Positions 1-4,461 of a DNA stretch of 4,511 bases are shown in pieces. Both the position numbers and the translations under genes were made by a program. The stretch lies in the IMG/VR virus record IMGVR_UViG_2695420658_000003, one strand, 5' to 3'. Below the pieces are notes generated by a model, which was given only the letters and a program-made list of their open reading frames with translations, was not told the DNA's origin and searched no databases. The stretch comes from a virus. Taxonomy: Duplodnaviria; Heunggongvirae; Uroviricota; Caudoviricetes. Numbering within the stretch: the first letter of the stretch is position 1; every line of letters starts with the position of its first letter.

Positions 1-8
1 ACACTAAA

Positions 9-140
9 TCAGTAAGTTGGCAGCATCACCGTTTTAACGTTACTAATAAATCGTGAAACAATCTCCTCATTTGTTAGTATTTTCGCCTGAGCACAGCAAG
101 AGGTTAATATTGCAACCGTCATTAAAAATGGCTTTATCAC
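9..140 (-). CDS. hypothetical small protein (43 aa), possible lipoprotein precursor; candidate moron downstream of the tape measure gene
   Basis: Minus-strand frame open from a GTG at 138..140 to a TGA at 9..11; the other two minus frames are full of stops. GGAG (plus 149..152) lies 8 nt upstream of the GTG. Predicted product MIKPFLMTVAILTSCCAQAKILTNEEIVSRFISNVKTVMLPTY has a Lys-containing N-region, a hydrophobic stretch, then L-T-S-C resembling a lipobox. An ATG at 120..122 is an alternative start (37 aa) with no obvious SD. The ORF is very short and lies in AT-rich DNA, so chance occurrence is not excluded. Confidence 0.3.
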   Translation of the reverse strand: MIKPFLMTVAILTSCCAQAKILTNEEIVSRFISNVKTVMLPTY

Positions 141-207
141 AAAACAAACTCCATTGTTAGCATGTTACGCGATAATTTTGCCTCATCTTTCACCACAAAA
201 AAAGAAC

Positions 208-2157
208 TCACCTTTTAAATGGAGAATACCCAACATCATGGGTGATTTTCATAAAGGGATCGCCTGTTTTCGGCAAATCGATAACGCGCATTCCAGGCGG
301 CGCGTTGTCAAACGTCACCTTAAGTTCGCTGCGGGTTGCCGGTGAAGATGCAAGGCTTAACAGCTGATTCCTTTCCAGTGATACATTCGGGGTGTAGCGT
401 TTATCGGGAGATAAATACCCATCACCACGTGGCATCTGCCATCCGGTCATGTCATAGACAAAATCATGGAACTGTTTGCCCCACTCGTCGAACTTATCAT
501 TCAGACCAAATCCACTGTTCAGTGCATCAGCCACAAAATTTTTAACAAGCCAGGGATGTGCTTTTTCAAACTCCTGCGCCATCATGCCCAGTTCAAGCAA
601 TCCACCAATCAGACTGATCTTTCCGAGGCCCTTTAATTTCAGCCCTGTTTTTCCTGCCGCCGTTGTCCATTGATTCTGGGCGACTGTTGCCGCACGAATA
701 CTTGCCACCGCCTTCACACCAATATACAGGGCAGAAACCGTTGCTATTGTTTTTACTGCCTGTTCCCATCCCCCCATTGCTCTGACAACCTGATCAACCT
801 CCTGCCAGACTTTTTTCACAACCGGACCGACCGTTTCCCAGTTATCAATTATGAGATATGCACCACCGACGAGAAGCGCAATTAATCCCTTTGCCGGCGT
901 CATATTCATCACGCTACCCATGATTTTTGTTATGCGTGTCAATGTGCCAATCGCCACGCCCATCGTCAGTAATGCCGCACCAGTTTTCGCGATGGTTTTT
1001 ACGACCTCAGGATTTTCTCTGACAAACGTGCGCACTTCTTCCAGAAAAGGCTTCATCTCTTTTATGCCTTCATTGAGTGAAGGCAGGAAGGTTTCCCCCA
1101 GCGTGGAAGAAATCGCATTGATCTGGTTCTGCAGCAGCAACAACTGATTTTCTGTCGTCGCGGCACGGGCGGCATATTCTTTCTGCATTGAGCCGCCATA
1201 CTGCTGCGCATCCGCCACACGATTAAAGTTGGTTCGCAACAAATCCAGATTCGTGAGCAGCGGCGCAATGGCCCCCAGGGATTCCTTCCCGAACAGCGCT
1301 TTCAGCACAGCAGCCTGTTTTTCTTTCGGCACTTTTGCCAGAGAATCCAGTACGTGCAGCATGGCCCCGCGGGCGTCTTTCTGCATATCCGCCGCCAGTT
1401 TTTTCGGGCTAATGCGCAACGAGCGGAGCACTTTTTTCTGCGATTTGGTGGCAGAATCCCTCGCTGTCAGCGACAACATAAAATTCTTTATCCCCGTCGC
1501 AGCAATTTCTGACTCCACCCCCATTCCGGCAATGGTTGCCCCCATTGCGGCAATCTCTCCGGAGGCCACACCCGCAACACTGCCTAAAGGGCCAATACGG
1601 GTCACAACATCAGAAATCTTTTTCGCACTTGCAGGACCGGTATTACCAAGATAGTTAATCTTATCCGCAAGCCCTGCCACCTCTCCCTGTGTCAGTTTAA
1701 AGGCAGTGCGCCACTGCGCCATCATCTGACCGGATTCTTCTGCCGTGGTGTCAAAGGCCACGCCCATCTTCACGGCATCGTCAGTAAACTGCATCAGCTC
1801 GTCACGGGCGATACCAGCCTGACCACCCGCCGCCACAATTTCGGCGATACCTTCCGCCGACATGGGCAGTTCTGTTGACAGGTCGCGCACCTGCTCCGTC
1901 ATTGCCTTAAACGCTTCCGGCGTATCCAGACCATCCACCACTTTCCGGACATCCGCCATTTTTGATTCAAGGGCAATGGCAGATTTGACCGGGAGCGCCA
2001 GCGCCCCCAGTACTGCGGTTCCGGCACCCGCTGCGCCCAGTAACAGGCTGGCAAACTCCTTTTTAAAACCTTTCAGCTGGCGCTGCATTCCCTTCAGCGG
2101 TGCCGATACCTTATCCACGGCAGTGATGATCGCCTTCAGCTGAAAACTGTCAGCCAT
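208..2157 (-). CDS. phage tail tape measure protein
   Basis: 649-aa product starting MADSFQLKAIITAVDK from the ATG at 2155..2157, ending at TGA 208..210. Ala/Gly-rich helical N-terminal region typical of tape measure proteins, internal hydrophobic segments (e.g. GLIALLVGGAYLIID), and position directly downstream of the tail assembly chaperone. The six-frame track extends the ORF to 2196 (MK + 10 X) through the N run; I treat that as an artefact of the ambiguous bases. The true start and its RBS cannot be verified because they abut the gap. Confidence 0.88.
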   Translation of the reverse strand: MADSFQLKAIITAVDKVSAPLKGMQRQLKGFKKEFASLLLGAAGAGTAVLGALALPVKSAIALESKMADVRKVVDGLDTPEAFKAMTEQVRDLSTELPMSAEGIAEIVAAGGQAGIARDELMQFTDDAVKMGVAFDTTAEESGQMMAQWRTAFKLTQGEVAGLADKINYLGNTGPASAKKISDVVTRIGPLGSVAGVASGEIAAMGATIAGMGVESEIAATGIKNFMLSLTARDSATKSQKKVLRSLRISPKKLAADMQKDARGAMLHVLDSLAKVPKEKQAAVLKALFGKESLGAIAPLLTNLDLLRTNFNRVADAQQYGGSMQKEYAARAATTENQLLLLQNQINAISSTLGETFLPSLNEGIKEMKPFLEEVRTFVRENPEVVKTIAKTGAALLTMGVAIGTLTRITKIMGSVMNMTPAKGLIALLVGGAYLIIDNWETVGPVVKKVWQEVDQVVRAMGGWEQAVKTIATVSALYIGVKAVASIRAATVAQNQWTTAAGKTGLKLKGLGKISLIGGLLELGMMAQEFEKAHPWLVKNFVADALNSGFGLNDKFDEWGKQFHDFVYDMTGWQMPRGDGYLSPDKRYTPNVSLERNQLLSLASSPATRSELKVTFDNAPPGMRVIDLPKTGDPFMKITHDVGYSPFKR

Positions 2158-2162
2158 GCTTC

Positions 2163-2189
2163 NNNNNNNNNNNNNNNNNNNNNNNNNNN
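2163..2189. other. run of 27 ambiguous bases (N): assembly gap or masked sequence
   Basis: Read directly from the sequence; translated as X in the overlapping ORF. Confidence 1.
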
Positions 2190-2190
2190 G

Positions 2191-2609
2191 CTTCATCTCC
2201 TCGTTAATGCGGACGGCCTCGGCTTCCAGTTCTGTAAACTGCGAAACAGCCCCCCGTCGCAGCTCCAGTGGATTCAGTTTCCAGAACCAGGCAACATTGT
2301 AGAGTCGTTTCCGGAGGTGCTTCCCGTCTCCGACTGGGTAAAAAAACGCAGGATCTGCATGCTGGTCTTAAAAATATCCAGTTTTGCCATCTGCGCCGCC
2401 GATGAACGCGGGATCCCCGCCAGCAACGGGATATATTTCAGTGCCACCTGGCTGTCCAGTTTAATACTGCCTTCACCGGAAATAATGAAAGGAAAACCCA
2501 GCGCCTCGATTTCGTCATACGTGGGCTCGCGCAACTCCAGCACATGCAGCATTTCGTTATGCGCTGTCACCGGTTTTTTTAAAACTATTTCTGTAACGTT
2601 CATTGCCAT
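2191..2609 (-). CDS. tail assembly chaperone, -1 frameshift-extended isoform (lambda G-T / P2 E+E' type); 3' end undetermined because it runs into the N gap
   Basis: After codon 90 of the chaperone (…ILRFF), a -1 slip on the minus-strand heptamer T_TTT_TTT (plus 2340..2346) enters a frame that stays open for 50 codons (YPVGDGKHLRKRLYNVAWFWKLNPLELRRGAVSQFTELEAEAVRINEEMK) down to 2191, then enters the N run. This frame is the same as the tape measure frame. Confidence 0.5.
2274..2609 (-). CDS. phage tail assembly chaperone (unshifted short product, 111 aa)
   Basis: ORF MAMNVTEIVLKKPV… between the tube and tape measure genes, the canonical chaperone position. The ATG at 2607..2609 overlaps the tube stop codon (TAATG). 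GGAGGG (plus 2618..2623, reverse complement) lies 8 nt upstream of the ATG. The size is typical for this family. Confidence 0.72.
   Translation of the reverse strand: MAMNVTEIVLKKPVTAHNEMLHVLELREPTYDEIEALGFPFIISGEGSIKLDSQVALKYIPLLAGIPRSSAAQMAKLDIFKTSMQILRFFTQSETGSTSGNDSTMLPGSGN
2340..2346 (-). other. candidate programmed -1 ribosomal frameshift slippery heptamer (T_TTT_TTT on the minus strand)
   Basis: Seven consecutive A on the plus strand at 2340..2346. In the chaperone frame they read CGT TTT TTT ACC, giving an X_XXY_YYZ heptamer with tandem Phe codons. The -1 frame downstream is open and leads toward the tape measure gene. Confidence 0.5.
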
Positions 2610-2965
2610 TACTGATACCCTCCCTCTTCGCCGTGGAATTCAAGATCTGCCGTGCCTTCTTCGGCATTATGATTAGCCTCTCCGTGCAGCCATGCCGCCG
2701 AAAGCACATACACCATGCCGTTTGCCAGCTCAGCGGTAATCGTCATCTGGTCTGAGGTGGTAATTTTGTCGACCGGAAAGTTTTTGGGCACTTTAAACGT
2801 GCCCTTAACGTAAGGTGACCGCCAGGTCTCCTTGTAATCCACATCCCCTGCCATGCCGACGATGTCATCCCGGACATTGGTGTTCATCGGCACTTCAATG
2901 CCACCTGTCAGCGATAACTGCTGACCATCCACTTTAAAAAAACAGGTTCCGGCGATCTTTGCCAT
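2609..2965 (-). CDS. phage tail tube protein (Mu gpM-like size class)
   Basis: 118-aa ORF MAKIAGTCFFKVDGQQLSLTGGIEV… immediately downstream of the sheath gene. The ATG at 2963..2965 overlaps the sheath stop codon (TAATG). Strong SD GAGGAG (plus 2974..2979, reverse complement) lies 8 nt upstream. Stop TAA at 2609..2611. Confidence 0.8.
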   Translation of the reverse strand: MAKIAGTCFFKVDGQQLSLTGGIEVPMNTNVRDDIVGMAGDVDYKETWRSPYVKGTFKVPKNFPVDKITTSDQMTITAELANGMVYVLSAAWLHGEANHNAEEGTADLEFHGEEGGYQ

Positions 2966-4461
2966 TATGCTGACTCCTCTGAATACTGAAGACGGAACTG
3001 GTTAACCACCGCAAAGACACGTAACTGATTAACATAATCCGGCGGGAACAGCGTATTCAGTCGGTTCGGGTTATCTGCATCACGCTCAACTATCAGATAC
3101 TGTTTAAACAGATCGTAATTTTCCACAATACCGGCACGCTCCATCTGACGATATGTCGCCAGAAGTTCCCCTTTGATAACGGCAGGAGTGACAATCGCCT
3201 GCCCCGGACCAAAACGGGTACCATCATTTGCCAGCTTGTGACGTCCGTACTTGCTTGTGATGACCGATTTCAGTTTGCGAAGAACATATGCACTGGTATG
3301 CAGAGTTTCACTGTCCAGATAGCTGTTGTCTGCCACGCCATACGCATTCTTTTTGTAGGTGGTTACGGAACGCTGGATCTGCAACGTGCCGCCTTCCACA
3401 TAAGCCGTCGCCACGCCGTGAGATAAAAGGGTCTGCTGCTCTGTCATGATGAATCGCTTACCTTTCGGTGCCGGAAGCATCCCCACCAGCTCCCCCGTCT
3501 GTGTCGGACGGGCAGGATCATTCCGGATAAATACCGCTTCACGGGCAAGGCGACTGGCAACCAGTTCATCGACAGGCGACTGGGTTTCTTTTTCGTAACC
3601 GGCAAGCGTGATATGTTGCTGATTATGCATATCTCCGGCACCAACCAGCTCTGACAGCGTTCCCAGTTTTGCGGTATAGCCATGCCCGTATAACTGGCGC
3701 GCATAACTCCAGCGACCGCTGCTGTCATTCATTTCGGTCATCATCATATTGATGGAGGCGGCATCGTTGAACGGCAGACCGATAAAGTCGAATGCCTCAT
3801 CGCCCATAGCAGCAACAGCGGCGGTAAGATCAGGCGCTCCGCTACCGGCAGCACCGACTTCCGTCACCACCCGAAGCCCTGCTGGCAGAATCTCACCACC
3901 ACCAGAACCATAATAATTCAGACAGACCGGTAACTCATTACCATACAGCCCCTTATGACGGGCAGTCAGCGTCACCACACCTGCATCAGATGACGCCGTA
4001 AACGGCAGGGTGATAACCCCGTTTACCGCTTCCTTAATCGCGGTGGCAACCGCAGTGGCATCATCGCCATTCACCACAGGCACCTGTACACGGGAGCGCC
4101 CGACATACAGACTCAGGGTGCCGCTTTCCTCTGCTTCTCCGGCAACCGTCACCCTGACCGTCGCCGCCGCCCCTCTGGCTTCCGGTACTGCAATAACATA
4201 CAGTTCACCGAAAGGATCTGTCTGACGGTAGACTTCCACCATACGCGCCAGCTGGCTCCCCGCCCCACAAATCTGGCGGGCATAATCTGCCGATGGCATC
4301 AGCACCAGGCTGTTAACCTCAATGGCTGCATCGTTGCTGGCATGCCCGATCAGTAATGCAGGCGCGCTGGTCACCGCTGTATTTGCCGCAGAATTGTTCA
4401 TCTCGGCGTAGAACAACGGCACCAGCGTATTCGACGGAACAGTATTAAAACTTATCGTCAT
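2965..4461 (-). CDS. phage tail sheath protein (contractile tail)
   Basis: 498-aa ORF MTISFNTVPSNTLVPLFYAEMNNS… as the first gene of the sheath-tube-chaperone-tape measure series. Start ATG at 4459..4461, preceded by AAGG (plus 4472..4475, reverse complement) with a 10-nt spacer. Stop TAA at 2965..2967. The size and N-terminal sequence are consistent with sheath proteins of Mu-like myoviruses as I recall them. Confidence 0.88.
   Translation of the reverse strand: MTISFNTVPSNTLVPLFYAEMNNSAANTAVTSAPALLIGHASNDAAIEVNSLVLMPSADYARQICGAGSQLARMVEVYRQTDPFGELYVIAVPEARGAAATVRVTVAGEAEESGTLSLYVGRSRVQVPVVNGDDATAVATAIKEAVNGVITLPFTASSDAGVVTLTARHKGLYGNELPVCLNYYGSGGGEILPAGLRVVTEVGAAGSGAPDLTAAVAAMGDEAFDFIGLPFNDAASINMMMTEMNDSSGRWSYARQLYGHGYTAKLGTLSELVGAGDMHNQQHITLAGYEKETQSPVDELVASRLAREAVFIRNDPARPTQTGELVGMLPAPKGKRFIMTEQQTLLSHGVATAYVEGGTLQIQRSVTTYKKNAYGVADNSYLDSETLHTSAYVLRKLKSVITSKYGRHKLANDGTRFGPGQAIVTPAVIKGELLATYRQMERAGIVENYDLFKQYLIVERDADNPNRLNTLFPPDYVNQLRVFAVVNQFRLQYSEESA

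Follow-up and report, generated by a model that had tools for sequence, protein, structure and literature searches.

A lipoprotein-like reading frame behind the tape measure gene of a prophage is very probably the stub of an accessory gene broken by IS1

The DNA considered here, called the window throughout, is a stretch of 4,511 nucleotides from a tailed virus of the Caudoviricetes (IMG/VR virus record IMGVR_UViG_2695420658_000003). At its start, an earlier note made from the letters alone had described an AT-rich segment behind the tape measure gene with a small lipoprotein-like open reading frame (ORF), and had suggested, as a speculation, a moron acting in superinfection exclusion. Our analysis indicates that this ORF is, with high confidence, a dead remnant: the stub of a prophage accessory gene that was broken by the insertion sequence IS1. 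The intact accessory gene encodes a protein of 160 residues, predicted to be exported, and is a moron-like cargo gene.

The ORF runs on the minus strand, like all other genes of the window, from a GTG at 138..140 to a TGA at 9..11 (9..140), and encodes 43 residues, MIKPFLMTVAILTSCCAQAKILTNEEIVSRFISNVKTVMLPTY, the product beginning MIKPFLMTVAILTSCCAQAK. A Shine-Dalgarno-like GGAG (149..152, minus strand) stands 8 nt upstream of the GTG and is kept in all copies of the gene that belong to group 1, the window's own version. All of these elements, which the earlier note had listed, can be read in the sequence, and its counts were reproduced: 75 of the 210 positions in 1..210 are G or C (35.7%) and 34 of the 60 in a sample of the sheath gene (4021..4080, 57%), the remaining window standing at 52.5%. 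As had also been stated, no start of a next tail gene lies within 1..207; the tape measure stop codon occupies 208..210. The ORF is a chimera, made of 37 native codons followed by six codons (VMLPTY) and a TGA that come from the end of IS1. The length of 43 residues, taken earlier for the size of the gene, is thus an artefact of the insertion, the native protein having 160 residues, and the segment, while indeed low in G+C, is not a single continuous spacer since positions 1..30 are the IS1 end.

These 30 positions form the outer end of IS1 with its left inverted repeat (minus strand; the plus strand is the reverse complement of GGTGATGCTGCCAACTTACTGATTTAGTGT), and homology between the window and related prophages begins exactly at position 31. 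Of 5426 complete E. coli genomes, the set on which all E. coli counts given here are based, 4966 contain the 30-mer, with a median of 10 copies each; at one annotated locus (L003) the 30-mer stands directly next to a disrupted zapC, outside an IS1A transposase gene whose start is 55 bp away. The exact 43-residue product led to L004 (GCA_000281815.1) and L005 (GCA_000268045.1), two NCBI contigs that have it among their gene calls and that both match window 1..2162 at 100% identity. There the gene order is tape measure gene, 43-residue ORF, IS1, an ORF of 68 residues and the DNA circularization gene. The IS1 of L004 measures 768 bp, opens with the 30-mer of the window and has four differences from the annotated IS1A copy. 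On both contigs a perfect 9-bp direct repeat, CGTTAAAAC, stands on both sides of IS1: one copy is the target-site duplication at window 31..39 (read on the minus strand), and the far copy falls outside the window. The leftward extension that the earlier note had proposed could be followed on these contigs, where it led into IS1 and, beyond it, to the resumed 3' part of the accessory gene and then to the DNA circularization gene.

IS1 makes target duplications of 9 bp and prefers AT-rich targets. The 30-mer, the 9-bp duplication and these habits together therefore point to a simple transposition of IS1 into the gene, and the AT preference would explain why the AT-rich accessory gene was hit. 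The left edge of the window cuts through the 768-bp element, and the remainder, with a transposase read leftward on the minus strand, falls outside. A search with the exact IS1/gene junction gave no match in species-representative genomes. Database entries named Shigella sonnei include a "partial" protein of 37 residues that ends exactly at the IS1 break point, which suggests, from the sequence, that the broken allele belongs to S. sonnei. On L005 the insertion site holds two tandem IS1 copies (4881..6424) with 8 bp (TACATCGG) between them, and the 9-bp duplication is found again in the outer flanks of the pair.

The intact gene is present in E. coli FDAARGOS_944, whose DNA is 99.9% identical to the window over 31..700. 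Here the annotation places a hypothetical protein of 160 residues (WP_000594909.1) after the tape measure protein and before the DNA circularization protein; its start corresponds to window position 140, which is the GTG of the 43-residue ORF. The two products are identical over residues 1-37, and residues 38-43 and the stop are read from IS1; by homology and annotation, window 31..140 (minus strand) is thus the native 5' fragment, codons 1-37 of a 160-codon gene. The full-length protein matched phrog_5586 (PHROGs v4, unknown function) with an E-value of 9.7e-89, residues 1-160 aligning with 161 profile positions, in a scan that at a cut-off of E<=1 returned two families only, both of unknown function. 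Remote relatives also matched phrog_5586 (P0010, E 5e-46; P0024, E 2e-14). The family is small: 1.84 billion proteins yielded 19 representatives at 50% identity, and its members are annotated as hypothetical in all sources. Searches of the protein against Pfam, NCBIfam, PADLOC and PDB sequences gave no match. The ratio of nonsynonymous to synonymous substitution rates (dN/dS) was 0.07-0.27 in deep pairs, close pairs having too few changes to inform, and the gene is therefore under purifying selection. In three clades the gene has a G+C content of 34-37% vs 52-57% in its flanks. One 43-residue cluster member, P0035, was considered as a possible counterpart of the window ORF and was rejected, being a C-terminal fragment.

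With both forms of the gene at hand, we can weigh the other ways in which the beginning of the window might be read. A complete 43-residue lipoprotein moron of the Cor/Llp type, blocking a phage receptor, would account for an ORF, a GTG, a Shine-Dalgarno site and a lipobox-like LTSC that are all real, as well as for the gene calls on the two NCBI contigs. However, the last six codons and the stop belong to IS1, every uninterrupted homolog has 160-162 residues, and the stub is without the whole barrel and without both conserved cysteines of the intact protein. Nor was any relationship to Cor seen in the sequence, although the earlier note had drawn the parallel: Cor of phage N15 gave no BLASTP alignment at E<=100 and falls in phrog_1119 vs phrog_5586 for the accessory protein. 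The IS1-derived 3' end and the length of the homologs refute the 43-residue ORF as a native gene product, and we hold this reading to be exceedingly unlikely. Alternatively, the segment could be a non-coding AT-rich spacer or regulatory region in which an ORF arose by chance, as short ORFs frequently do in AT-rich DNA, and the lack of any Pfam or NCBIfam family match would be expected of it. Yet the full-length ORF is conserved at identities from 25% to 99% in many elements, has a dedicated PHROG and 19 representatives at 50% identity, and shows the dN/dS values given above, while Rfam gave a single sub-threshold chance match on window 1..700. Substitution pattern and ORF conservation thus refute a non-coding spacer, to which we leave practically no probability at all.

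In this genome, then, the accessory gene survives as a stub that could encode a signal peptide and 18-22 mature residues, with neither the barrel nor either of the conserved cysteines, and because of this it is inactive. The window ORF should be annotated as a pseudogene, which makes the result a corrective one for this window. The surrounding prophage is itself a decayed remnant riddled with insertion sequences. On L004 an IS4-family transposase and an IS3-type pair stand directly upstream of the sheath gene, in place of head/neck genes (2620..5649), another IS1 interrupts the baseplate J region (15300..15803), and L005 is alike in both respects. The sheath gene of the same prophage in E. coli FDAARGOS_944 is split by ISEc60, an IS4-like element (L001, 8903..11703).

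Other insertions were seen in and beside the gene elsewhere. In E. coli PEC122 an independent IS1B (L046, 709..1476) interrupts the signal-peptide region of a group-2 homolog, close to the 5' end of the gene, which makes it a second IS1 insertion in the accessory gene family at a different site. In Shigella flexneri SFBU1023 (L044) and E. coli ECMA0423 (L045) the gene for the 160-residue protein is intact, and a different IS1 (right end GGTAATGACTCC...) lies about 30 bp, or some 10 codons, into the DNA circularization gene; this site is about 80 bp after the accessory gene, near 4560.

The intact gene occupies a defined, optional slot in phiP27-like prophages (with a Mu-type tail) of E. coli, Shigella, Salmonella and Yersinia, with the tape measure gene on one side and the DNA circularization gene on the other. 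It is carried by a cassette of about 570 bp and about 36% G+C that comprises a spacer, the Shine-Dalgarno site, the gene and a terminator-like hairpin. In phiP27 the tail genes are the same and the cassette is absent, the tape measure stop being 15 bp from the start of the DNA circularization gene; when aligned with phiP27, the cassette begins right after the tape measure stop. The 67 bp at window 141..207, which separate the accessory gene from the tape measure stop, bound the cassette upstream and hold no convincing promoter. Among the E. coli genomes, the junction was of the empty phiP27 type in 40, carried the group-1 cassette in 11 and a group-2 cassette in 101, the proteins of the two groups sharing 49% amino acid identity. 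A copy from Yersinia (74% identity) and a fourth clade (about 40% identity) are found in the same slot, four clades in total. On viral contigs, 26 of 27 loci have an intact gene of 160 or 162 codons, with a gap of about 65 bp to the preceding tape measure gene and one of about 100 bp to the DNA circularization gene that follows; the remaining locus looks like the same IS1-broken allele. A GC-rich hairpin with a T-run directly follows the stop codon in every clade examined, its sequence differing by clade, and in this genome it is displaced beyond IS1, outside the window.

The presence and absence of the cassette in phiP27 and the E. coli genomes, together with its own hairpin, bear out the suggestion of a laterally mobile, AT-rich, moron-like cassette behind the tape measure gene. 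The search for related tail modules carrying the insertion, which had been recommended as a check, did find the cassette with a conserved ORF in related prophages. A moron described in a paper on phage SfIV was also considered; its place is between Q and the lysis genes, and it has no relation to the accessory gene.

Several loci hint at how the slot has been reshaped. In alignment A3 (columns 142..152) the ribosome binding site region before the DNA circularization gene of phiP27 (TAATGGGGTAT) resembles that of the accessory gene (CAATGGAGTTT); judging from this resemblance, a deletion between two such short, similar stretches might have given rise to the empty phiP27 junction. At two loci (L012 and L015, upstream of 6001) a group-1 gene with 95% identity stands beside a tape measure C-terminus that is only 35% identical to that of the window, which places a joint of mosaic recombination immediately upstream of the cassette. 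In Yersinia enterocolitica (L006, 7880..8000) the proper start of the gene seems lost, an ATG AAA AAA CCT... lying upstream and out of frame, so that the signal peptide may be frameshifted; at the same locus only 1.5 kb (6491..8001) separate the tube gene from the accessory gene, no tape measure gene is called, and this gene may have been deleted.

Sequence comparison found an N-terminal signal peptide in every clade, and predicted export is the property common to the whole family. Outside the E. coli/Shigella and Yersinia sequences, the signal peptide ends in an AxA|K site for signal peptidase I and has no cysteine. In the clade of the window, the signal peptide (residues 1-19; 84..140, minus strand) contains both a lipobox, LTSC15 (96..107), and, at the position homologous to the signal peptidase I site, AQA|K (84..92), all within the native 5' fragment, which also includes the start of the first helix. 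The lipobox passed a PROSITE-style rule ([LVI][ASTVI][GAS]C after a short hydrophobic stretch, a basic n-region, and the cysteine at 15-35), with MIKPFLMTVAILTS|C15 placing the cysteine at the lowest allowed position. Among the homologs, this cysteine was conserved in the E. coli/Shigella and Yersinia sequences only. The lipoprotein-like N-terminus reported earlier was thus confirmed as an export signal and as a match to the lipobox rule, and not as a lipobox shared by the family. A lipid anchor is possible for the E. coli/Shigella clade only. The accessory protein would accordingly be soluble and periplasmic in most clades and possibly lipid-anchored in that one. This apparent switch from signal peptidase I to lipobox within one family offers a tidy case for the study of localization evolution.

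Downstream of the signal peptide, two cysteines (C57 and C150) are invariant in the family and probably form a disulfide in the periplasm. The AlphaFold model, with a mean predicted local distance difference test score (pLDDT) of 70.6 and a predicted template modelling score (pTM) of 0.68, places a helix at residues 24-41 before eight strands; an earlier model built from 7 sequences had a pLDDT of 49 and was discarded. As modelled, the mature domain of about 14 kDa would consist of one helix and a generic eight-stranded beta-barrel. Foldseek returned generic small-barrel matches only, all with E-values >0.01.

The most remote relatives (P0021, P0024 and P0028, 25-29% identity) are encoded on contigs of about 20-39 kb, outside tail modules, next to an IncFII repA, ParC-like and ParA-like genes, toxin-antitoxin pairs and a CI-like repressor, a gene set that is typical of phage-plasmids. 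On these elements the G+C content of the gene equals that of its surroundings, and a hairpin with a T-run is again found downstream. This change of context in the remote relatives favours a cargo gene over a tail-structural one. Just upstream of the gene, the loci of all three phage-plasmid relatives (L036, 690..739; L037, 2870..2918; L038, 1995..2043) share an AT-rich, partly palindromic element (TTAAATAAATATTTAATAA) that, from its sequence, could be a promoter or operator.

What might the intact protein do? We propose a protein that is exported into the carrier's cell envelope and would act there by binding or blocking. Proteins of such a profile have often proved to be superinfection-exclusion or host-interaction factors. 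From this analogy, from the predicted location of the protein and from the cargo behaviour of its gene, we take protection of the lysogen from other phages, at some step in the envelope, as the likeliest single role, although a tentative one that we consider less probable than all other roles taken together. In its fuller form the proposal is more doubtful still: phrog_5586 would be an undescribed class of exported cargo proteins of prophages and phage-plasmids that guard the carrier at the envelope step, for example by binding or blocking an incoming tail component or by inhibiting a tail or host muramidase, with one lineage passing from soluble to lipid-anchored through a lipobox that evolved inside the signal peptide. 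If this were true, the repeated IS1 insertions, on the S. sonnei-like contigs and in E. coli PEC122, would mark the loss of protection in decaying prophages. Superinfection exclusion cannot apply in the genome of the window, because the gene is disrupted.

Several observations weigh against the picture of a moron-like gene for envelope protection. No function is supported by homology; the protective role is drawn by analogy only, and a PADLOC search for defence systems gave no match. A scan for the sigma-70 consensus upstream of the gene found 0 sites vs 2.6 expected in shuffled sequences, and the best match in a looser scan was 7/12. Independent expression from a repressed prophage, a defining property of morons, is therefore no more than possible, and the gene could be expressed late, with the tail genes. 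Finally, the divergence of the gene between clades (49% amino acid identity) is similar to that of the DNA circularization protein (52%); because it matches that of its neighbour, the cassette is an old resident of the slot, often lost or exchanged, and not a recent arrival.

The same observations would suit a component or assembly factor of the tail module, since the four clades keep the same slot, the gene diverged in step with its neighbours and no promoter of its own was found. However, an export signal in every clade would take the protein out of the cytoplasm, where tails are assembled; phiP27 does without the gene, as do the 40 E. coli genomes whose junction is of its type; remote relatives are found in regions of plasmid maintenance and not in tail modules, and a terminator-like hairpin follows the gene. 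We thus regard a tail function as very improbable. A somewhat better, still small, chance is given to a lysozyme inhibitor like MliC or PliC, either periplasmic or lipid-anchored, which would guard the lysogen against the host's lysozyme or the tail lysozyme of an incoming phage. Such protection has a precedent in Spackle of phage T4, which acts against the tail lysozyme of incoming phages. A stretch S61-A-S-G ... K77 and the fold matches led us to compare the family with real MliC and PliC sequences. No Pfam MliC domain was found at E<=1, and hhalign of the family against an MliC/PliC alignment paired the signal peptides only, with a probability of 12%, on which membership was rejected at the profile level. 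Moreover, avidins and uncharacterized barrels score equally well or better, and the motif directly follows the first cysteine here, whereas in MliC it lies near the last; it is lost in the remote clade. An MliC/PliC-like mode of action is possible. We retain the envelope-protecting cargo protein as the leading proposal for the intact gene.

The IS1-broken feature is ordinary in kind, and it would be reasonable to take the intact family into experiments, with nothing surprising so far. Its wider interest is modest: an uncharacterized exported protein with a predicted beta-barrel that keeps one fixed slot of the tail module in at least four diverged clades and is also carried by phage-plasmid-like elements. 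The protein is also small, and it is cheap to express and easily tested.

The rest of the window is made up of tail genes, all on the minus strand: the tape measure gene (208..2157), an assembly protein gene (2274..2609), the tail tube gene (2609..2965) and the tail sheath gene (2965..4461). The tape measure gene truly starts with the ATG at 2155..2157, for a protein of 649 residues; the ORF list gives 662 residues including X residues because it reads through a run of 27 N at 2163..2189. This run lies 6 nt upstream of the true start, is flanked by a 5-bp duplication (GCTTC) and makes the window 32 bases longer than L004 and L001 at this place. The run marks either a gap in the assembly or masked sequence.

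Compared with known systems, the insertion resembles the IS1 mutations by which Shigella-type prophage genes become pseudogenes, having the canonical end, the length of 768 bp, the 9-bp duplication and an AT-rich target, in a prophage that likewise holds several further insertion sequence copies; nothing about it is unusual. A moron, as defined in HK97- and lambda-like phages, is an additional gene, equipped with a promoter and a terminator of its own, that stands between genes adjacent in relatives. Like the morons of temperate phages, the accessory gene is present or absent between two adjacent conserved tail genes, has a G+C content far below that of its flanks, is directly followed by a terminator-like hairpin and, like many of them (Bor, Lom, Cor), encodes an exported product, here a predicted one; it differs in having no recognizable sigma-70 promoter, in having co-diverged with the tail module in four clades and, in the window, in being interrupted by IS1. 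With Cor (N15, phi80, HK022) and Llp (T5) it shares small size, export and a place in or beside a phage tail cluster, and in the E. coli/Shigella clade a lipobox. However, the accessory protein is about twice as large, has no sequence similarity to Cor, belongs to another PHROG and lacks the lipobox in most of its family. Set against the MliC/PliC inhibitors, it has an extra N-terminal helix, a larger domain and fold scores no better than those of avidins, whereas the predicted general design is common to both: a small periplasmic barrel of eight strands with two cysteines near the barrel ends, an SxSG...K-like stretch, and soluble as well as lipid-anchored forms.
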